A DNA stretch of 64,000 bases from an uncultured Bacteroidota bacterium (GTDB lineage Bacteria; Bacteroidota; Bacteroidia; Bacteroidales; GCA-2748055), in NCBI GenBank assembly GCA_963713725.1, contig CAVQMZ010000014.1, forward strand, positions 69,938-133,937, given 5' to 3'. Within the stretch, counting starts at the first letter, position 1. Every line of letters starts with the position of its first letter. The position numbers and the translations under genes are program-made. Of the stretch, positions 49,877 to 64,000 are shown piece after piece. The notes under the pieces are model-generated. The model saw nothing but the letters and a program-made list of their open reading frames with translations. It ran no database searches and was not told the DNA's origin.

Positions 49877-51039
49877 ATGAAATCAAAACATATTAAAAGA
49901 GTAGATCTGATTTTCGAAAAGATCGAATGCAAGGATGTCCTGAAAAAGGTCGCTGGTATGGATCCCGATGCCATTTGCCAGGAGATTCTGGATTCGGACC
50001 TGAAAGGCGTGGTGGTGCCGGATTTCCAACAGGATTAAAATGGCGGTTCACCGCACAGGAAGAAGGAGCCTGTAAAATATATCGTTTGTAATGCGGATGA
50101 AGGAGAGCCGGGAACATTTAAGGATCGTGAAATCCTTGACCAGGTACCCGGAAAAGTTTTCTGTGGTATGGCCATTGCCGGAAGGGCGGTGGGTGCAAAA
50201 AAGGGATATGTATACCTGAGGGGGGAATATAAATTCCTTGATTCCAAAGCTGAATGAGGAATTGATTGAAGTTCCATAATACCATGGATGAATTCGATCA
50301 GAATTTCCACATTGAGATTCGGCTGGGAAGCGGGGCATATATCTGTGGTGAGGAGAGTGCACTTATTTGAATCCATTGAAGGAAAAAGGGGAGAACCCCG
50401 AAATAAACCTCCCTATCCGACCACTTCCGGACTTTTTGGTAAACCCACTTCCATAAATAATGTGGAAACCCTGGTGCATACGGTAATGATTATGAAATAT
50501 GGGGCAGACCATTTAAGGAGCTTGGAACTAAAGATTCAAGGGGCTCAAAGGTATTCTCCATTTCAGGAGATACACCCAAAGCGGGCATTTATGAACTGGA
50601 ACTGGGAATGACTGTCGATCAGTTTGTGAATGATTTTGGTGATGGAGATACCAAGGCTGTTCAGGTTGGAGGAGCATCAGGATTCTGTGTTCCCAGGAAG
50701 CGATTTGGCGAGACCATTATCGGATTTGAAGGAGTTCCCACCGGAGGTTCCATGAAGCTGTTTAATTCTTCGCGTTCCATGTACAATGTGCTTCACAATT
50801 ACCTTGATTTCTTTACCGAGGAGTCCTGTGGACAATGCACACCCTGCCGTGTAGGATGCCAGCAACTCCTGAAGGGGGTTGAGGCTGTAAAGCGCGGGGA
50901 AAAGAACTCCAAATACCTGGATGAGCTTGTGAAACTGGCAAAGACCATGAAACGGGCTTCCAAGTGCGGACTGGGTCAGTCGGTTGGAAATGCTTTTGGA
51001 TCCATCGTGGAGAACTTCAAGGAAGAAATCATTTACTAA
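49877..51039 (+). CDS. hydB: [FeFe]-hydrogenase beta subunit (short NuoF-like NADH/FMN subunit), frameshifted
   Basis: [78 protein letters not shown]. Confidence 0.87.
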
Positions 51040-51062
51040 GAATAAACGAAAAACTAGATATC

Positions 51063-52850
51063 ATGGTAAGTTTATCCATAAATGGCATGCTGGTAAAAGT
51101 TCCTGAAGGAACTACCATTCTTGAGGCAGCCAAACAATTAAATTTCAGAATACCCACCCTCTGTCATCACGACGACCTTTGTGTGGCTGGAAATTGCAGG
51201 GTTTGTGTGGTGGAACAGCTGGGAGCGAAATCCCTGGTTGCAGCCTGTGCTGCTCCGGTTAGTGATGGGATGCAGATACTGACCAACTCGTTAAAGGTAC
51301 GTTCAGCACGGAAGCATATTATTGAGTTACTGCTTTCGGAGCACAATGCCGATTGTACCAAATGTTATAAAAATGGAAAATGTGAACTGCAGAATCTCTC
51401 CAATGAGTTTGCAGTGGGCGATCATATTTTCCTGGATCTGACATACCATAAAGGACTATACCATTGACCGCTTTTCACCTTCCATTCAGAAGGACGACAG
51501 CAAGTGCATTCGTTGCCAGAGGTGCGTAAGAACCTGCGAACAACTGCAGGGGGTCAATGCCCTTACAGTAGCACATAAGGGAGAGCATCAGAAGATCAGC
51601 ACCTTTGAGGATCTTTCCATGGCTGAGGTAATTTGTACCAATTGCGGACAGTGCATCAACCGTTGTCCCACCGGAGCCCTTGTGGAAAGAACCTATCTGG
51701 ATGAAGTCTGGGATGCCATCCTGGATCCTGACAAACATGTGGTGGTTCAGACTGCTCCTGCAGTGAGGGTTGGTCTGGGTGAAGAACTTGGTCTGGAACC
51801 AGGGAACAGGGTGACCGGTCAAATGGTTGCCGCTTTGAAGCGGCTTGGTTTTAATTCTGTGCTGGACACAGATTTTACAGCCGATCTTGACCATAATGGA
51901 AGAGGGCACAGAGCTGCTGACCAGGTTGAAGAGGGCGCTGGTGGATAAGGATCCCGATGTGGCCCTGCCCATGACTACCTCCTGTTCACCGGGATGGATC
52001 AAATTTATTGAACACACCTTTCCCGAATTCCTGCCCAATGTTTCCACCTGTAAATCTCCCCAGCAGATGTTCGGGGCACTGGCTAAAACCTATTATGCGC
52101 AAGACCAGGAAACTGAATCCCAAGGATATTGTGAGTGTCTCCATCATGCCCTGTACAGCTAAAAAATATGAGGCAAATCGTCCTGAAATGCGTTCAAGTG
52201 GATACAAGGATGTGGATTTTGTACTGACTACCAGGGAGCTGGCCAGGATGATCAAACAGGCTGGTGTGGAGTTTGAAAAGTTGAAGGAAGATAAGTACGA
52301 CAGCATCATGGGTGAGTCTTCAAGCGGAGCTGCCGTAATCTTTGGTGCCACAGGCGGGGTGATGGAAGCAGCGCTGAGGACGGCCTACGAAATTGTGACC
52401 GGAAGGGAGGTTCCCTTTAAAGGTCTGAACATTACCCCGGTTCGTGGAATGGAGGGTGTAAGACAGGCTTCTGTGTTGATTGAAGACTGCCTGGAAGAAT
52501 GGAGTTTTCTCAACGGAGTGGAGTTGAAGTGTGCAGTGGCTCACGGTCTTGTGAATGCCAGAGAACTTATGGATGGTGTAAAAAGCGGAGAGATCAATGT
52601 TCACTTCATCGAGGTAATGGCCTGTCCGGGCGGCTGCCTTGGCGGTGGAGGACAACCCATCCCCACAAATGAGGAGATTCGCAAAAAACGAACCGAAGCC
52701 ATATATGCTGAGGACATGTCAATGGCCATACGAAAGTCCCATGAGAATCCAGAGGTTATCGGAATTTACAGAGACTTTTTAGGTGAACCGCTCGGTCATA
52801 AATCCCACGAATTACTTCATACCCATTATTCAGAGCGGGTCAGGTATTAG
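51063..52850 (+). CDS. hydA: Group A [FeFe]-hydrogenase catalytic subunit, frameshifted
   Basis: H-cluster motifs TSCSPGW, MPCTAKKYE, EVMACPGGCLGGGGQP. N-terminal 2Fe-2S, HxxxCxxCxxxxxC and two 4Fe-4S motifs (CIRCQRCVRTC, CTNCGQCINRCP). Confidence 0.93.
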
Positions 52851-56615: not shown

Positions 56616-56748
56616 CATAGATAAGTCTTTATTGACTAAATCAGTGCCTTAAGAGCAATCGAAAGATTCAAGGCGAAAACCACCTGTTTTTCTAAAGCTG
56701 ATCATCCCGATTCACAACCAATATTCAATAGAAGCACATTTCCTGCTT

Positions 56749-57534
56749 TTAAAAAACCCTGCTTATCTCATCAAGAGCAAACGCAAAAACTTCTGAAGGT
56801 TTTCCAAGAGTCTCCGGCATAACTTCATGGGGATCTGAAGTATTTGGAAACCACATCTCCTCGTAATTGGTCTGGGGATATACCCGGCAATAAATGGTAC
56901 CGGTATAATCATTCAGAAAATTATACCAACCGCCCCACCACACCCAATTAATATCGTATAAATTGATGGGTGAATAGTCAGGTAGGAATTCAATAAAACT
57001 ATTGGTAAAATTCTCAGCGGAAACGTCAGGTGACTGACTGAAAAAAACATGTATATAATGAATTGGCGGAGATATGTTTGTTGCAAAAGGTTTATTTACC
57101 TCATATGCCTGTAAATAGATGTTAAGCTTGAAGGATCCGTTATAAGCAAGGCTGTCAATACCAAACCAGAATTCAGGAATCTGGTTCATGGTTTGGCTGG
57201 TCAAGGTAGCGGCAGCACCTCCAACATGCCTGAACTGAAAATCTTGAATACTTTCAATATAATTTTCCTTGATCAGGTTAATTCGATAATTTCCAAAAGG
57301 CAGATCTTCAAACAAATAACGTCCCTCCGCATCAGTGAACTGTTCCATAAAGACGGTTTCATTGCTAAGCTGAACCTGAACACCGGATTTATCCTGCAAA
57401 GCGTATCCATAACAATCATTAAGCGACACAATACCTTTAACATCTCCTTTTAAAATGGGCACCTCATCTTTTTTACAGGCAAAAAAGGCACCAATCCCTA
57501 CGAAAAAACAGATATACAAAAGTTTGATTTTCAT
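56749..57534 (-). CDS. Lipoprotein with carboxypeptidase-regulatory-like (prealbumin-fold) domain, paralogue 3
   Basis: FFACKK lipobox; TDAEGRYLFEDLPFGNY.I...KENY. Confidence 0.72.
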   Translation of the reverse strand: MKIKLLYICFFVGIGAFFACKKDEVPILKGDVKGIVSLNDCYGYALQDKSGVQVQLSNETVFMEQFTDAEGRYLFEDLPFGNYRINLIKENYIESIQDFQFRHVGGAAATLTSQTMNQIPEFWFGIDSLAYNGSFKLNIYLQAYEVNKPFATNISPPIHYIHVFFSQSPDVSAENFTNSFIEFLPDYSPINLYDINWVWWGGWYNFLNDYTGTIYCRVYPQTNYEEMWFPNTSDPHEVMPETLGKPSEVFAFALDEISRVF

Positions 57535-57537
57535 ACA

Positions 57538-58293
57538 TCAAGGTGCTATAATTTTTATTACCTGGGAATGCTGTTGCTCATCAACAGTAGAAAATATGGG
57601 TACTCCATAATATTCGCTAAATTCTCCTATTTCTTCGTAGATGCTACAAACATATGCAATTAAATAAAGTGTTTGTCCCTTATCGTATAAATGTTCATTT
57701 TCACTATTAACTATCCCTGGATTAGCACAAAAGACCATAAGCCTGGTATTATTTTCTCTTTCATATGCATAAGCCTGATCACTGTGTGTATAATTTTTAT
57801 TACTTACATTCTCTGTAACATCAACGAACACTCTAATTTGCATTCTATCATTATTATCCCAAGGTATATCTGTTACAATGGCAACCGAATTTTCATCCAT
57901 GTTTGAAAATGAAGGATAATACAATACCGAGCTTAATACTGGTATTTTATAGTCAGCTTTTTTATGCAATTCGATATCAAGAAAGACGGTATCATTCCCA
58001 AAAACCTGTACTCCCTGCCTGAATTTACTCCCATATCCTTCCTTGGAGAATTCGATTTCATAAGTTCCATTACCTAAACCTGGTAATTTAAATTTACCAT
58101 CAAAGTCCGATAAGGTCGATTGACTGCCATACGGTCCATGTGCAATGATAATTGTATTTGTTGCATCAGTATTGTCATGCATCTGAACCGTACCGGTAAT
58201 CATACCGCTGGAATAAAGTGGTTCGGGCTCTTTATTGCAACTACTGCTCAAAAAACCTGTAATAAGTACTATGATTGTGAATTTACAATTCAT
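57538..58293 (-). CDS. Lipoprotein with carboxypeptidase-regulatory-like domain, paralogue 2
   Basis: SSSCNKE lipobox; SDFDGKFKLPGLGNGTYEIEFSKEGYG. Confidence 0.72.
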   Translation of the reverse strand: MNCKFTIIVLITGFLSSSCNKEPEPLYSSGMITGTVQMHDNTDATNTIIIAHGPYGSQSTLSDFDGKFKLPGLGNGTYEIEFSKEGYGSKFRQGVQVFGNDTVFLDIELHKKADYKIPVLSSVLYYPSFSNMDENSVAIVTDIPWDNNDRMQIRVFVDVTENVSNKNYTHSDQAYAYERENNTRLMVFCANPGIVNSENEHLYDKGQTLYLIAYVCSIYEEIGEFSEYYGVPIFSTVDEQQHSQVIKIIAP

Positions 58294-58294
58294 G

Positions 58295-59069
58295 CTAAGG
58301 CATAATAAATGAAAGCTCCTCTGATGCATTGCCTAGGTTTGGGTATATGGTAATATTGTTTTCATAGTCAAAGTAAGTGTCTGTTCCCGTTATGTAGTAG
58401 TAATTGTATACCATTTGAGCAGAAGGGGCCGTGTAAATGCTTGCTTTTAAGTATACCGTATTACCACGATCAAATGGAAGGCCTTCAGTCACTGATGTAT
58501 GGGATCTATAAATATCATAATCATAATACTCAATTAAAGTCAAATTTTTAGTAGCCTTGGCAGATTCAATGGAAAAATTTTCTTCAGTAGAAAAGAACAT
58601 ACGAAGTTTAAGGAGATAAGGTTTATATTGACCGGAAAAAGATACACTTACCCTAATTGAATCATTAATAAATTCAAGATTTATTAGTTGTGTGGTGATG
58701 TATTGACATATGAAAGGTGCATCAGAATAATCTATTACTGTTGGATAACCACCCAAATGCTTCACACTGTGCAATTTCATCGTCCCAAAACCCTCTTTTT
58801 CGAAACTCATATCGTAGGTTCCATTAATCACATTTTTAATTACATATCTTCCATCTTCGTTCGTAATAGCATTGGACTTCCTATCAGGTTCTATAAATAC
58901 ATGTAATACCGCTACAGTCTTCAAGTTGACTTCCATATTCATCGAAACAGAAAGCATAACCAACCATATCCCCTTGAAGATATGGTCTGAATTCATCTTC
59001 TTCGGAACATGCCGAAAAGAAAGGCACAACAAGAATAAAAACGACGGACAGGATTTTTAATGGATCCAT
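58295..59069 (-). CDS. Lipoprotein with carboxypeptidase-regulatory-like domain, paralogue 1 (frameshift near 58,880)
   Basis: FSACSEE lipobox in 58884-59069; TNEDGRYVIKNVINGTYDMSFEKEGFG..HLGG in 58295-59032. Confidence 0.7.
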
Positions 59070-59200
59070 GTGTTTTTATGTTATTATAAATACAAGAGAT
59101 ACAATTATTAAAGATATATTTTACTCTCTGAAATCAGACCTTATTCCTCTCTTTTGTTCTTTCTGATTAATAAATTAGAATATAAGTAATGTAAACTTAG

Positions 59201-59241
59201 GGCGTGACAGGCAGAATGGCGTATGACACAATGTTGTGTGC
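59201..59241 (-). repeat. Truncated attC-like site 1
   Basis: On the minus strand GCACACAAC begins 1 nt after the hydrolase stop codon. It is 8/9 complementary to GTTGTTTGC, which precedes that gene. No matching second arm was found. Confidence 0.55.
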
Positions 59242-59242
59242 T

Positions 59243-60352
59243 TTAATGTAATATTTGAGTTGCAATTTCCTTTGCAATTTTATCGGCGATTAAGAACCTC
59301 CTGGCATTACAAAGCACAACTATGTGCAGGTTTGAAGCTGGAACAGAAAAGATACAGGTTGAAAACCCTCTTCCAGCTCCCGGAGTCCAAACAACTTTTT
59401 GTCCATTCAATTCACTAATAAACCATCCCATCCCATAAGAAGCTTTTTCATCGTAATATATTATCCGACCGACATTTACGGGCTCTCCATTATTTTTATT
59501 GGCCTTCGTCCAGGCTCGATTTAGTTGTTTCTTGGAAATGATCTTTCCAGAAAACAACGCCAATGCCCAATTATTTAAATCATCAAGTGTGGCAACAATA
59601 TCTGCATCTCCTTCTGCCAGATGGTTTTCGTCCAGATATCTTGTAGAATTATTAGGAATACCATTAACATTGCGATAGCCGTTAACCCGGTTTTTGATAA
59701 TACTGAAATAATCCATCCTTTTAGCATTTATCATATTAAATGGGGTGAAGTACACGCTTTTAAGGTATTCCTGATATTTTTGACCGCTTACAGATTCTAC
59801 AATTTTGGCTAACACCCAATACCCTGTATTGGTATAACTCCAGTCTTCACCTGGTGGGAATTTTAAAACTGCTGTGGAATCTCTTACAATTTCGAAAGGC
59901 GTACTGTGCAATTTTTGACCTTCCTTAAAATCATTGAGATAATCCTTTATTCCTCCTGTTTGATTTAATAATTGTTCTATTGTTATTTTATTCCATGCTG
60001 AGGGAATGGAATCAAGATATTTACTTATTGGGTCACTAAGTGCCAGCTTTCCCGCTGCCTCCAATTTGAGTATGGAAACAGCGCAGAATTGTTTTGAAAC
60101 TGACCAAATTCGATAAACTGAAGAATTTGTCATCGGAGCATCCAATTCTAAGTTTGCATAGCCATAGGATTTTTTGATCTTAATGTCATCATCGTGAATA
60201 ACGGATACGGACATTCCAACAATTCCAAGGCTATCCATATATCGAATTACCGTTTCTTCAACTCCCGCTTTGATGTCACTGGAAAACTGAGCAAGTATTG
60301 AATTTGAACAACAGCTAATTGTTAAGATTAGTATGAAATAAAATCTATTCAT
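59243..60352 (-). CDS. Serine hydrolase, beta-lactamase class C/AmpC-like family (cassette 1)
   Basis: SVSK (SxxK), LLNQTGG, F.PG..WSYTN (YxN), YGMGW; signal peptide. Confidence 0.88.
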   Translation of the reverse strand: MNRFYFILILTISCCSNSILAQFSSDIKAGVEETVIRYMDSLGIVGMSVSVIHDDDIKIKKSYGYANLELDAPMTNSSVYRIWSVSKQFCAVSILKLEAAGKLALSDPISKYLDSIPSAWNKITIEQLLNQTGGIKDYLNDFKEGQKLHSTPFEIVRDSTAVLKFPPGEDWSYTNTGYWVLAKIVESVSGQKYQEYLKSVYFTPFNMINAKRMDYFSIIKNRVNGYRNVNGIPNNSTRYLDENHLAEGDADIVATLDDLNNWALALFSGKIISKKQLNRAWTKANKNNGEPVNVGRIIYYDEKASYGMGWFISELNGQKVVWTPGAGRGFSTCIFSVPASNLHIVVLCNARRFLIADKIAKEIATQILH

Positions 60353-60369
60353 AATTTGTTCTTTTTATT

Positions 60370-60510
60370 GCAAACAACGGTTCGGGTAAATAAACTGTTT
60401 GCCAATGGCGCAACATTTTGCGTACGAGATTGCTCTCAATCTAGTTTTGTTACGGGGCGCAAAATGTGTGACATGGCAAATGGAATTTACCACAGTTCAT
60501 TGTTAGCGCC
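60370..60510 (-). repeat. attC-like imperfect hairpin site 2 (141 bp)
   Basis: Plus strand GCAAACAAC-GGTTCG-GGTAAA..TTTGCCAATG..ACATTTTGCG / CGCAAAATGT..CATGGCAAA..TTTACC..GTTAGCGCC. Homologous to 61227-61361. Confidence 0.75.
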
Positions 60511-60516
60511 TGTACA

Positions 60517-60807
60517 CTAAATATCGATCGAAATATTTACTTTGCCGCCCAACCCCTTTTCAACAATATCGTATAAGGTTTTAAGGGTGAGGTTACTCCC
60601 ATTATTTTCTACCCTGGAAATATAGGTTCTCTTCTTGTCCACAAGATCCGCCAATTGGGCCTGTGTAAGATTCTTCTCCTCTCTTGCTTTTCGAAGAAGA
60701 AGACCAATTTTAATTGATTCAAGATCTCGATCAAGTTCATCTCTTCTTTCTGTTCCTGGGTTCCCATAAACAGAATCCTTAATTTCCTTCCAGCTTTTAG
60801 TCTCCAT
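60517..60807 (-). CDS. HigA-like Xre HTH antitoxin
   Basis: YG..GT..R, LRKAREEKNLTQAQLA..KRTYISRVEN; overlaps the toxin stop. Confidence 0.87.
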   Translation of the reverse strand: METKSWKEIKDSVYGNPGTERRDELDRDLESIKIGLLLRKAREEKNLTQAQLADLVDKKRTYISRVENNGSNLTLKTLYDIVEKGLGGKVNISIDI

Positions 60808-61153
60808 TTTCTTGCTCTTTTTCTTTGTAATAATTCTTCATCAAGCGGACTGCCTTATCAATCTCTTTCTGTGGGGTCTTCTGAGTCTTCTTTGTAAAGC
60901 CATTGAGCAGAATAACAAGTTTTCCTTTGTCGAAAAAGCAAAACACCCTCCAGATATCTGATCCAAGCTTAACCCTAGCTTCGTACAGTCCTTTTGTTCC
61001 CTTTAGGAATCTGAGATAGTTTGAGGGAACACGCTCGTAAGTCTCGATTATCTCGATTACCTTATAGATCTTATCCTGCACTTTCGTGTTTTGCTTTCGC
61101 AGGAAAGATTCGAAATAATGCTTATATGCAATTACTTCCCTTACTTTCTCTAT
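60797..61153 (-). CDS. RelE/HigB (Gp49-like) toxin; expected start position reads ATA
   Basis: GLYEARV..WRVFCFFD..VILLNGFTKKTQKTP.KEI..A. The frame is open upstream to ATA-GAG-AAA-GTA at 61153. Confidence 0.85.
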   Translation of the reverse strand: MEKVREVIAYKHYFESFLRKQNTKVQDKIYKVIEIIETYERVPSNYLRFLKGTKGLYEARVKLGSDIWRVFCFFDKGKLVILLNGFTKKTQKTPQKEIDKAVRLMKNYYKEKEQENGD

Positions 61154-61157
61154 AGCA

Positions 61158-61178
61158 CAAAGGTAACTTATAAGTTAC
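61158..61178 (-). promoter_or_regulatory. TA operon -7 box and perfect operator palindrome
   Basis: GTAACTTATAAGTTAC (61163-61178) overlapping minus-strand TACCTTTG (61158-61165). Confidence 0.75.
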
Positions 61179-61226
61179 ATATATCAAAGTAGTGAAATTC
61201 GGAATATTGTTTCCGTATTGGCAAAC

Positions 61227-61361
61227 CGGGTTAACGGTTTGGGTAAACGTACTGTTTGCTAATGACACTACTTTTTGCTTGTAAGGGTACCTGGTCTCTA
61301 TCGTTTGGTTTGAAATGCAAAAAGAGTGACATAGCAAATGGAGTTTACCCTTTGTTGAAGC
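61227..61361 (-). repeat. attC-like imperfect hairpin site 3 (135 bp)
   Basis: Plus strand CGGGTTAAC-GGTTTG-GGTAAAC..TTTGCTAATG..CTTTTTGC / GCAAAAAG..CATAGCAAA..GTTTACCC-TTT-GTTGAAGC. Confidence 0.75.
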
Positions 61362-61391
61362 TTTAGTATATGGACTGTTCTTTTTCTGTTT

Positions 61392-61994
61392 CTATATCTC
61401 ATCATTAACCAAGCTAAAGGTTTGGTTTTCAAATTTTATCTGAATTATCCCATACTCATATGAAAAAATTGCGAATTCTGCATCTCCCAATGAAACGCCA
61501 AAGATCTTTATCGTGTTCTCATAAGTTTGTCCAAGAATTTCTACTGTTGATTTCGCACTCCCTGTATAGGATGCTTTCATAAGGTCATCGTACCCCAAGA
61601 AATCTATATTAGCCATCACATTTTCACCGTTATTAATGTGGGGAGAGATTTTTACTCGCAATATGTTATCACTTTCCCAACCATCCGTACTAAGCCAATA
61701 GGTGACAAAATTGTAATTGGATACTGTCCCGCATCTGTTTTCGTGTATATCAACCATACTACCAAAAGTTCTATCCAAGACTTGAAAAGTAATAAAGGAA
61801 TCGTTTTCAGGGCAGTAAAAAGTAATTGAGTCATTGTCATTGTAATACCTTACTGCATTAGGGGGAGTCCTGTAGGTGATATCATCTGGGCAACACGACC
61901 AGAGAGCTACAATCAAAAGGGGAAATATAAAAGGAAACGATTTATGTGAATATCGGTTTAATCTGGCTGTCAATATTTTGTAAATCAATTTCAA
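61392..61994 (-). CDS. Hypothetical lipoprotein (cassette 3)
   Basis: 200-aa ORF with TTG start and LIVALWSCC lipobox-like motif; ends ..FSYEYGIIQI... Confidence 0.6.
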   Translation of the reverse strand: MKLIYKILTARLNRYSHKSFPFIFPLLIVALWSCCPDDITYRTPPNAVRYYNDNDSITFYCPENDSFITFQVLDRTFGSMVDIHENRCGTVSNYNFVTYWLSTDGWESDNILRVKISPHINNGENVMANIDFLGYDDLMKASYTGSAKSTVEILGQTYENTIKIFGVSLGDAEFAIFSYEYGIIQIKFENQTFSLVNDEI

Positions 61995-62018
61995 TTTTGT
62001 GGCGATTTGAACACTATT

Positions 62019-62093
62019 GCTTCTAACGGAGGTGTTAGGTGTATCGGTTATATATATTTTGTTTCATTCTGGTTTTAAAACGCTGTTATGCTG
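62019..62093 (-). repeat. Short or degenerate attC-like (or attI-like) site 4
   Basis: Plus strand GCTTCTAAC-GGAGGT-GTTAGG has the same AAC-N6-G(G/T)TA geometry as sites 2 and 3. Possible far end GTTATGCTG at 62085-62093. Confidence 0.45.
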
Positions 62094-62483
62094 TCAGTAA
62101 TTGTCAGTAATTACTAATCTCAGAGCTTATTATTTGCAAAATATATTGCACACCAAGTATCCCCAATATCCTTTAATATGGTAAAAAAGGGATAGAGGAT
62201 ACGTGTTATTCAAATGATGTCATGAAGTTGTTGGGGTCCATGGCATGATAAATCTAATGATAATTGACTTATATGCAAGTGTTAGAAATTATCATATACT
62301 CCAGGGCATTAAAGTTGGGCAGGAAATCGACTTCATATAAAGCTTATGTATGGATTATCTCAACACCCTCTATATAAGTTGTGCCTGGGAAGAGCTGCCT
62401 TAGATGAGGCTTAATTGAAGCCCTTAAGTCAGCAGGCGTAAAATAAAGAATTGTTTCAGTAGTGTTTCAGTAGACTGTAAAAA

Positions 62484-62524
62484 AATAGGCGCAAACCCTT
62501 GTCAGTGCTGGGTAATGCGCCTTT
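62484..62524. other. Inverted repeat next to the att core (terminator-like or element end)
   Basis: AGGCGCA..TGCGCCT hairpin with a T-run on the minus strand, directly 3' of the tRNA fragment. Confidence 0.5.
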
Positions 62525-62530
62525 ATCCTT

Positions 62531-62553
62531 GTGGGATGTACTGGAATCGAACC
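62531..62553 (-). mobile_element. att core: duplicated tRNA 3' end (23 bp), isotype not determined
   Basis: Minus strand GGTTCGATTCCAGTACATCCCAC comprises a T-loop, the 3' T-stem, the acceptor strand and the discriminator. The upstream sequence cannot complete a tRNA. An integrase starts about 150 bp away. Confidence 0.75.
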
Positions 62554-62706
62554 TATTCTTTTCCGTTCATTCTATTTCATCCTAAATCTCTGATAACTTT
62601 CTAATTAGCTCATTTACAGCGCGAATTAAAATGTGCTTAAATGAACCGATATGAAAGATTTGTTTTCGTAATGTTTTCGCAATATCTTTACTAAAAGCTT
62701 TGTCCT

Positions 62707-63918
62707 ATGCCAAGTTACCATATACAATTGAATGACAAACCAATTTCAGGAACAAAAGAACATACGCTTCATTTTAGGATTACTGTGGATCGTATCCATG
62801 CCAAGATTAAGTTGGATTATTCCGTTACTAAAAAATATTTCAATCCAAAACCTCAGCAAAATAGGTATATAAGATCAATCACCCAAGGCATGCTATAATA
62901 AACTCAGAAATCGAGAGAAAAATTCAGGAAGCCAAGGATGCTGCAAAAGAATTATATGATGAAGGGAAAATGGTAACTGCCAAAGCAATAAAGGCTCGTT
63001 TGTTAAGGCCAAAGTCCTCAAGTTTTCTGCTCTATGCCGAGGATTACATAAGCAATTAAAACGTAAGAATAAAATTGCAAATGCAAAAAAGCATAATGTT
63101 GTACTGAATAAATTGGAGGAATACCTGGAAGGTGAAGATCTGATGTTCCAGGAAGATGAATCTTGAATTTCTAAATCATTTCAGGAATTTCTCGTAAAGA
63201 AGGGTAATAATCCTAATACTATCCATAATAATTTCACGGCCTTCAGGACAATATTTTATAAGGCGATTGAAGAAGGAAAGGTTAAGCAGGAACAAAATCC
63301 TTTCTTCAGTTTTAAACTAAAGTTGGCTTCGATTGAACGGTCCCGATTAAATTGTAGGAAATTGAAGCAATCGAAAATCTGGTGTTAAAGGAAGGATCAT
63401 TGACCTGGAATGTCAGAAATGCATTCTTGTTTTCATTCTACTGTGCAGGGATAAGGGCAAGTGATATCTTAATGATGAAATGGAAGAATATTGGTTGATG
63501 GAAGATTAATTTACCAAATGCATAAGACTAAAATGCACCATTCAATCAAACTGGTTGAAAAGGCTAACGGTATACTTGAGCTTTATAAGAAAACCGATTC
63601 TAAGCATTTTATTTTCCCATTCTTTAATAATGAATTTGACTATTCAGATCCACAATTTCTCTTTAACCAGATCAGTGCCAAAGACAGCCTTACTTAACAA
63701 GTACCTCAAGATAATTGCAACTAAGGCAGGAATTGAAAAGAAGATCTCAACCCATACAGCCAGACATAGTTTTGCAGATATAGCACGTCAGAAGACAGAT
63801 AATATCTATAACTTAAGCTAAAACTTTAGGTCATTCCAGCATTAAGATCACTGAAGCTTACCTGGCTTCATTTGATGAGAAGGCTGTGGATGATACTATG
63901 GATGAGGTATTTAGTTAG
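62707..63918 (+). CDS. Tyrosine recombinase/integrase (Bacteroidetes arm-binding + SAM-like + catalytic), multiply frameshifted
   Basis: N-terminal FRITVDR arm domain; FLFSFYCAGIRASD, QMHKT, STHTARHSFA, LGHSSIKITEAYL (R-K-H-R-H-Y). Stop at 63918. Confidence 0.9.
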
Positions 63919-64000
63919 TTTTATGATGCATGTTATATGGAGTTCACGTACACAGAGTTTAAGAAATTTAAGAGTAGGATTCTCAATATAGAAATTGTGG

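Follow-up and report, generated by a model that had tools for sequence, protein, structure and literature searches.

A probable orphan integron-type cassette array in an uncultured Bacteroidales bacterium and its likely kinship with arrays headed by an IntI-sister recombinase

Introduction

Can integron-type gene capture be served by a recombinase other than the integron integrase IntI? The question is raised by a short cassette array near one end of a 64,000-nt stretch of an uncultured Bacteroidales genome, here called the window (contig CAVQMZ010000014.1, C14 below, of the 6.06-Mb source genome G000). At 59201-62027 on the minus strand, three co-oriented cassettes encode, in order from the proximal end, a predicted lipoprotein, a HigB-HigA toxin-antitoxin pair and a serine hydrolase, and each closes with an attC hairpin, the distal-most of which is truncated. 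An earlier note on this DNA had described three co-oriented units split by homologous AAC...GTT hairpins and had proposed that they form a cassette-capture array of a Bacteroidota lineage that has no adjoining IntI and whose recombinase is not identifiable in the window. The sequence agrees with that description, and the proposal is supported by the analysis of the source genome, its congeners (designated G0xx, with individual loci as L0xx) and more distant genera.

We consider it likely that the window array is an orphan integron-type array of an attC family, family A, whose complete platform consists of a tyrosine recombinase, an attI-like region and an array, and is not a classical IntI integron. 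With somewhat less assurance, we lean towards a broader reading in which Bacteroidia and some other lineages carry a second, undescribed integron class, with the window array as its orphan product. Its integrase would be a sister of IntI without the I2-containing insertion, often fused to a HARP-like domain and transcribed towards the array, and its attC sites would carry unpaired bases on the crossover arm. Within the literature covered, which excluded most subscription papers and the IntegronFinder supplements with their per-genome attC clusters that have no integron integrase (CALINs), we found no published account of attC arrays that start at a recombinase devoid of the IntI insertion.

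attC sites of the window array

The toxin-antitoxin cassette ends in a 141-nt family A attC site at 60370-60510 (minus strand; R'' GGCGCTAAC, R' GTTGTTTGC) and the lipoprotein cassette in one of 136 nt at 61227-61362 (minus strand; R'' AGCTTCAAC, R' GTTAACCCG). Both have AAC...GTT ends, and their outer arms are conserved between them (46 nt at 80% identity, 33 nt at 88%) around unrelated centres. A truncated site at 59201-59242 (minus strand), starting with GCACACAAC just past the hydrolase stop codon, retains the R''-L'' arm only; its missing L'-R' arm marks the distal end of the array. This remnant gave only a weak partial match with nhmmer (C14:129138-129177, E 0.94), and its arm resembles the subtype of the site at C23:58339.

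Folded as single-stranded DNA, the plus strand of the window reaches -29.1 kcal/mol at 60370-60510 and -19.8 kcal/mol at 61227-61362 (z = -4.4 and -3.9), values equalled by none of 200 shuffles, and the opposite strand folds slightly worse (-26.8 and -18.4 kcal/mol). The two ends of each cassette also match across the gene to the degree that the earlier note had given. The hydrolase cassette ends are complementary at 8 of 9 positions (GTTGTTTGC versus GCACACAAC), the lipoprotein cassette ends match with one gap (GTTAGAAGC at 62019-62027 versus GCTTCAAC) and the toxin-antitoxin cassette ends match at 6 of 9 (GTTAACCCG versus GGCGCTAAC).

R1, a covariance model trained on 11 sites, was used together with BLAST and nhmmer to look for further sites. 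Both full window sites belong to its training set and score 118.6 bits (60370-60510) and 116.3 bits (61227-61362); a scan of the whole window with the model returned no further family A site. Scanned against Rfam at E up to 10, the region 58000-64000 matched snoRNA and riboswitch families only, and these by chance. The closest relative of the 60370-60510 site, at 87% identity, is C15:274364-274482, the first site of another array in the same genome. Judged by sequence and predicted fold, the window sites are genuine attC-type sites, and the array is an orphan, CALIN-like one, because the window contains no recombinase of the kind that heads related arrays.

Family A in the genome, the genus and marine sediments

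R1 returned 17 matches in G000, corresponding to 16 sites (one was also weakly matched on the other strand), all of them in arrays, on C15, C14, C23, C28 and C35. The C15 array spans C15:274351-287973, and the sites on C28 and C35 lie at contig ends. Sister sites measure 97-141 nt, with a single site of 248 nt, and have textbook cores such as GCCTAAC...GTTAGAC. Cassettes in some of these arrays start with a sequence that matches their own R'' at 9 of 9 positions, as in GTTAGACGC...GCGTCTAAC, GTTATGGGC...GCCCATAAC and GTTATGAGC...GCTCATAAC. Compensatory changes occur in five of the seven pairs of the L-box helix. The sites are imperfect palindromes with the anatomy of attC: one core reads R''...AAC and the other GTT...R', and there are L boxes, a spacer that stays unpaired and a loop that varies. 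Given these cores, the earlier note's view that the array has non-canonical core sites carries little weight, and what is unusual is instead the arm on which the unpaired extra bases lie.

Extra unpaired bases occur on the L'-R' arm, which bears the crossover, in all 16 family A sites, at a mean of 6.25 against 0.69 on the other arm. In a second, IntI-linked attC family of the same genome, family B, they fall mainly on the R''-L'' arm (8 versus 4.25, n = 4). Extrahelical bases of classical attC sites are by definition on the R''-L'' arm, in the terms used in a portion of PMC2727003, and family A does not have them there. In other genera, the asymmetry is only a tendency, with more extra bases on the right arm in 22 of 35 sites, on the left in 7 and equal numbers in 6, mostly reflecting a longer R'-side spacer.

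Family A was present in 10 of 24 congeneric genomes and in none of 16 genomes that belong to other families of its order. R1 found sites outside its training set in G020, G013, G021 and G018, scoring up to 119 bits, and many of the further sites in G000 and its relatives flank variable single genes, as the earlier note had anticipated for a cassette system. Lineage-specific homogeneity of attC sites is known from sedentary integrons, and the distribution of family A is homogeneity of that kind.

In contigs from four marine-sediment metagenome studies, attC arms were covered 10-30 times more deeply than cassette bodies, and many contigs diverged exactly at the arm ends. This pattern fits a large cassette pool with common attC sites. 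Parts of the window without metagenome cover carry no evidence of absence, and runs with small shares (X5-X24) do not count towards naming a habitat. Contig joints that connect 60490/60491 to 61232, and would amount to loss of the toxin-antitoxin cassette, were set aside, as their two sides span only 20-27 nt and other arrays are a possible source.

Several features of the sister arrays were recorded alongside. The 248-nt attC (L009:7200-7447, equivalent to G000:C15:275200-275447) comes after the first of the toxin-antitoxin cassettes on C15 and forms a long, very stable variable stem of -41.6 kcal/mol; R1 missed it, so site counts made with this model are lower bounds. Two further sites of that array (L009:10873-11008 and L009:14160-14295) have virtually identical attC bodies and differ in their R'' and R' cores and spacers, which looks as if bodies may be homogenised independently of cores. 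Identical pairs of family A sites stand in opposite orientation at the contig ends G000:C28:2301-2993 and G000:C35:88237-88927. These are either overlapping or adjoining contigs, or an array repeat that broke the assembly. A structure-only attC finder was dropped as a counter, having recovered four of nine known L009 sites and no family B site while flagging a hairpin at 51535-51775 that lies in coding sequence.

A recombinase without the IntI insertion heads family A arrays

A tyrosine recombinase gene lies directly upstream of, and co-oriented with, family A arrays on G000:C15, G020:C7, G020:C3 and G013:C25. All four family A arrays with an assembled proximal end, from three genomes, start at this gene, and the window sites belong to the same attC family as these recombinase-headed arrays. 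Between the gene and the first cassette is an attI-like stretch that is conserved within the genus. Intact recombinases have 362-400 aa with domains PF13495 and PF00589 and keep R, K, HxxR, H and Y at the catalytic positions. They score 205-213 bits against the IntI model TIGR02249 (cut-off 265), with model positions ~181-232 unmatched, and their best-scoring named model is NF040815 (XerA/'integron integrase'; 220-227 bits, cut-off 220). Aligned with congeneric IntI, they lack ~43 insertion residues and have ~120 extra N-terminal residues. The earlier note had left it to be asked which tyrosine recombinase clade accompanies such arrays, and the answer is this insertion-less sister family of IntI.

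The window array has no such platform, as no recombinase and attI-like region stand upstream of its first cassette. Beyond the R'-type core at 62019-62027 there is no attC arm and no preceding recombinase gene, and a tblastn search of 61900-64000 for a recombinase remnant gave only a generic catalytic-motif match inside an Arm-type integrase pseudogene. The upstream flank is only weakly similar to the attI-like regions of complete platforms. Contig C14 contains no TIGR02249 match, and the window no recombinase remnant of either type except for this unrelated pseudogene; nor does a recombinase with an IntI-specific domain stand beside the array, as it would in a classical integron. On C15, the only copy of the recombinase gene in G000 has lost its first ~81 residues and contains a frameshift. 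The window array would thus be orphan and now static, because it has no platform, its last site is truncated and the only cognate recombinase gene is itself truncated. It is probably inert in G000, having arrived by, or been left from, past recombination.

To place the recombinase, a quick maximum-likelihood tree was built from 103 sequences, with insertion columns dropped by a 60% fill rule. All 21 IntIs formed one clade with 100% support, and 79 of 80 members of the recombinase family formed its sister clade. Two Xer proteins from the source genome split from IntI and the family along a long branch with 99% support. A full-length structure model (mean pLDDT, the predicted local distance difference test score, of 77) matched archaeal XerA (4a8e, 5hxy) and VchIntIA (2a3v) about equally, with E between 1e-14 and 2e-13; the XerA structures came top and VchIntIA was among the top matches (E 2.3e-13).

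Most members have an additional N-terminal domain of ~80 residues that is HARP-like. Modelled alone (pLDDT 89), it had the HARP domain of SMARCAL1 as its top PDB match (E 0.014, probability 0.98), and the Pfam HARP family was matched by 4 of 10 members, with a best E of 5e-6 and scores below the cut-off. The HARP fold is associated with structure-specific DNA binding. The domain is absent from the Ekhidna protein (296 aa) and from Nitrospirae-labelled forms, yet arrays are present there.

In the mechanism that we propose, a complete platform would have, in a single orientation, the recombinase gene, then a short attI-like region and then the array of cassettes. The recombinase, an IntI sister with PF13495 and PF00589 and without the ~43-55-residue IntI insertion, would catalyse excision and insertion at the GTT of the R' core (G|TT), between two attC sites or between attI and attC, as in integrons. 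It would presumably use folded single-stranded sites and recognise them independently of the I2 insertion. The hairpin may then be read by something other than the I2 helix, possibly by the HARP-like domain where it is present. The integrase of this candidate second class either never gained the I2-containing insertion or lost it.

In the genus and at other loci, many copies of the recombinase gene face outwards, towards a contig end that is within 100-1500 nt. This position is expected if downstream attC arrays regularly break short-read assemblies, and such arrays are therefore likely to be under-assembled in public genomes.

Occurrence in other genera and cassette duplication

A scan of one genome per species yielded 80 loci of the recombinase family, including Marinilabilia, Marinifilum, Draconibacterium, several Flavobacterium, Ekhidna, Chryseolinea, Aequorivita and bins labelled as other phyla. 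All 80 proteins align to IntI with 43-55 gap positions, and no match to the IntI insertion segment was found within 10 kb on either side of the gene at these loci. In Flavobacterium, Draconibacterium, Ekhidna, Chryseolinea and Marinifilum, the gene precedes attC arrays. The downstream sequence contains repeated hairpins with AAC...GTT ends and chained complementarity.

Arrays were counted by a test for repeats with GTTN6/N6AAC complementarity, which sees only self-similar sites, and the counts are therefore lower bounds. Downstream flank of 5 kb or more was available at 28 loci, and 11 of them had at least one complementary pair there, nine having at least two; upstream, 1 of 60 loci had such a pair. 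Complementarity linked 56 of 102 consecutive repeat pairs downstream, against 13 of 83 in a skip-one control and 1 of 27 upstream. Five array-bearing genomes (those of L086, L044, L061, L065 and L089) were searched for IntI, and none had a TIGR02249 match over the cut-off; their best partial matches were the array-adjacent recombinases themselves.

Near-identical cassette duplicates run exactly from one R' GTT core to another (L086, L027, L044 and L028). They comprise a 1095-nt duplicate at 99.6% identity in Flavobacterium (L086), one of 818 nt at 100% in G020 (L027), two pairs at 99% in Draconibacterium (L044) and three copies at a second G020 locus (L028). At L027 and L044, one copy lies at the junction with the recombinase-proximal, attI-like region, which is the product that insertion by attI-by-attC recombination would be expected to leave. 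The duplicates speak for recent mobility of the cassettes.

Canonical IntI and alternative explanations

Canonical integrons are also present in this genus. G000 encodes a true IntI at C1:145703-146646, with the IntI-specific insertion and motif, read in three frames. An array of 13 or more family B attC sites, which are different from family A and GC-richer, runs divergently from this gene (locus C1:145703-160864, L011). The first cassettes of the array include a nucleotidyltransferase/HEPN-like pair, and family B additionally forms a CALIN on C20 (G000:C20:64500-67631). The intact IntI of G020 has a family B site upstream, and R1 found no family A site adjoining the IntI of either genome. 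Among 300 other genomes sampled from the phylum, 90 had a canonical IntI that passed the cut-off. Only one of these 90 was among the 47 same-order or same-class genomes with any match, the other 46 showing the partial pattern at ~100-150 bits. Canonical IntI is thus frequent in other classes of the phylum, the insertion-less pattern dominates in the class and order of the window, and the two integrase types look largely complementary by taxon.

The presence of an IntI on C1 bears on the most serious alternative, that the window is an ordinary CALIN with standard attC sites served in trans by that enzyme, the Xer-like neighbour of related arrays being incidental. IntIs are known to recombine diverse attC sites (abstract of PMC2095811), and the sister sites have canonical cores. 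The earlier note had held that a strong match to the canonical attC model, together with an IntI elsewhere, would make the array an ordinary CALIN; such an IntI does exist, but the point cannot be applied cleanly because the C1 gene is tied to family B. In both G000 and G020, IntI flanks family B and adjoins no family A site, whilst every family A array with an assembled proximal end starts at the other recombinase and all five array-bearing genomes of other genera are without IntI over the cut-off. Family A also places its extra bases on the L'-R' arm, and the IntI substrates described in the same portion of PMC2727003 have them on the R''-L'' arm. We regard service by the C1 integrase as unlikely.

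Less probable again, and in our judgement quite improbable, is that the arrays are relics whose intI was lost and that the Xer-like recombinase moves no cassettes, being a separate element that targets attI, attC or array ends in the manner of IS1111-attC elements or group IIC-attC introns. A repeated element could account for the frequent position of the gene at contig ends, for the two G020 copies at two arrays and for the members without a detectable array within 10 kb downstream. However, the gene keeps the same position and orientation in distant genera, no second element boundary is visible, and within the genus the attI-like stretch is retained between gene and first cassette. Cassette copies of 100% (G020) and 99% (Draconibacterium) identity lie exactly at the attI-like junction, and an active cassette recombinase is needed to explain the junction duplicates in Draconibacterium because it has no IntI. 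The sister relationship of the family to IntI also speaks against an unrelated element. That the hairpins are repetitive extragenic palindromes (REP), miniature inverted-repeat transposable elements (MITE) or terminators between genes, unrelated to cassette recombination, has next to no plausibility. The sites are indeed intergenic, hairpin-forming and repeated, but throughout the 6.06-Mb genome the R1 matches are confined to arrays on five contigs with unit boundaries at GTT, contrary to what the earlier note had named as a sign of REP or MITE elements. Moreover, they show no target-site duplications, their flanks across each gene are complementary and not direct repeats, and duplicated units run exactly from GTT core to GTT core.

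Several points weigh against our favoured reading of the window array as an orphan of recombinase-headed platforms. Activity of the recombinase is deduced from genome comparison throughout, and the canonical IntI of G000 and G020 may act on family A in trans. The recombinase and family A co-occur loosely, the gene being found in 9 of 10 genomes with sites and also in 7 of 14 without. Arrays were detected at only 11 of the 28 well-flanked loci, and the other 17 may be array-less; of the five genomes that lack IntI, three are draft assemblies or metagenome bins. The tree comes from a quick method, its outgroup is limited to two Xer proteins, and L103, a member of the family, groups with IntI (51% support). 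Likeness of the N-terminal domain to HARP is weak (Foldseek E 0.014, Pfam scores below the cut-off), and the domain is not essential, because the Ekhidna and Nitrospirae-labelled members without it have arrays. Finally, a conserved [FeFe]-hydrogenase-like gene in the window (~50950-52850, plus strand) is split over three frames in the order 2, 3, 1, 2. The assembly is probably indel-prone, given that this gene needs at least three frame switches, and single frameshifts, including those in recombinase genes, may therefore be artefacts and are unreliable as evidence of decay.

Cassette genes and surroundings of the window array

The proximal boundary of the array is the R'-type core GTTAGAAGC (62019-62027, minus strand), which matches the R'' of the lipoprotein cassette. 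This first cassette carries an open reading frame (ORF) for a predicted lipoprotein of 200 aa (61392-61994, minus strand) with no Pfam family above the cut-off. BLAST against G000 and 18 loci of relatives revealed no copy of the ORF, and contigs of two metagenome runs cover the region 61783-62029 with 15-17 differences.

The second cassette encodes a HigB-HigA pair, with a HigB/Gp49-type toxin gene (60797-61081, minus strand; PF05973, E 1.6e-20) overlapping by 11 nt the downstream gene of a 96-aa HigA-type helix-turn-helix antitoxin (60517-60807, minus strand; HTH_3 PF01381, E 2.7e-13). The antitoxin is 95-96% identical to copies in the C15 and G020:C7 arrays, and the whole cassette recurs at 79-81% DNA identity in four other places, two on C15 and two on G020:C7, with neighbours that differ each time, the kind of reshuffled order that the earlier note had looked for in a cassette. 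The five copies are too diverged to tell whether the upstream or the downstream attC travels with the cassette, and the attC bodies differ on both sides; it is the near-identical duplicates in G020 and other genera that answer this question. A stretch at 61150-61190 (minus strand), consisting of a palindrome GTAACTTATAAGTTAC followed by TACCTTTG and kept in the C15 copy, is probably the cassette's own promoter and operator; part of it presumably resembles the Bacteroidetes -7 motif TAnnTTTG. The toxin frame runs open upstream of its listed GTG start to 61144, and at 61136-61144 (minus strand) it reads ATA in place of the ATG start codon of the C15 paralogue. No difference at this position appeared in contigs of three metagenome runs. 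The toxin may have a shortened N-terminus or be translated poorly.

The third cassette encodes a 369-aa serine hydrolase of beta-lactamase/transpeptidase-like type (59243-60352, minus strand; PF00144, E 5.5e-57) with an N-terminal signal or lipoprotein-like leader. A close copy was absent from G000 and the 18 loci of relatives by BLAST, the best match having 32% identity.

Upstream of the array, a tyrosine integrase with an Arm-DNA-binding-type N-terminus (62707-63900, plus strand) is broken by several frameshifts and stops. It adjoins a stretch at ~62520-62560 (minus strand) that resembles a tRNA 3' end, with T-arm and acceptor; ARAGORN called no tRNA gene here or elsewhere in the window. Together they are probably the decayed end of an integrative element that abuts the cassette array. 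A synteny search with the other flank (56700-59150) matched only two of 40 congeneric genomes, both times short and weak.

Comparison with known systems

Integrons are defined by IntI. Current surveys require an IntI-specific domain, and it is for this reason that integrons are reported as rare in Bacteroidetes (in a portion of PMC9024848). The I2 insertion is presented as the key innovation for single-strand attC recombination in the abstracts of PMC4792948 and PMC7790495. If our reading holds, integron-type gene capture would be far commoner in Bacteroidia than has been counted, including in cultured Flavobacterium, Marinifilum and Ekhidna, and the status of I2 as the key innovation would become directly testable on a natural system. 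Marine-sediment cassette pools, with their hydrolase, toxin-antitoxin and lipoprotein genes, would likewise gain a candidate vehicle. The message of the window itself is modest, being that of a small and probably inert cassette array.

By the definition of a CALIN given in the same portion of PMC9024848, two or more attC sites that have no integron integrase close by, the window array belongs with these clusters, as it has two complete sites and one truncated half site and neither integrase type in its vicinity. A CALIN is, however, taken to be a decayed IntI integron, whereas the attC family of the window is tied to another recombinase lineage. That lineage is close to IntI (TIGR02249; VchIntIA, 2A3V) in its sister position, PF13495 and PF00589 domains, fold and catalytic residues, and unlike it in lacking the I2-containing insertion of 43-55 residues in all 80 members and in the HARP-like N-terminal domain that most of them add. 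With XerA and XerC/D it shares NF040815 as its best named model and XerA as its top fold matches. XerCD, which has no I2, acts on the folded single-stranded attP of the CTX phage, according to the abstract of PMC3442271. Unlike the family described here, Xer enzymes resolve chromosome dimers at dif and have no cassette arrays after them.

In integrons of the Treponema denticola type, intI is co-oriented with the cassettes and the IntI insertion is kept; co-orientation is therefore common to both systems, and the absence of the insertion is particular to the present family. Close counterparts are the chromosomal integrons of sedentary type, among them the superintegron of Vibrio cholerae and its V. 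cholerae repeats (VCR). From these, the system described here differs in a recombinase that lacks the IntI insertion, scores below the TIGR02249 cut-off and is co-oriented with its array and not divergent from it, and in the extra bases that family A carries on the L'-R' instead of the R''-L'' arm. The likeness nonetheless extends to co-oriented and mostly single-gene cassettes, to lineage-specific attC sites, ~90-140 nt long, that combine AAC/GTT cores and R and L boxes with a central spacer left unpaired and a variable loop, to toxin-antitoxin cassettes with their own promoter, and to cassette duplications and crossover at the GTT of R'.

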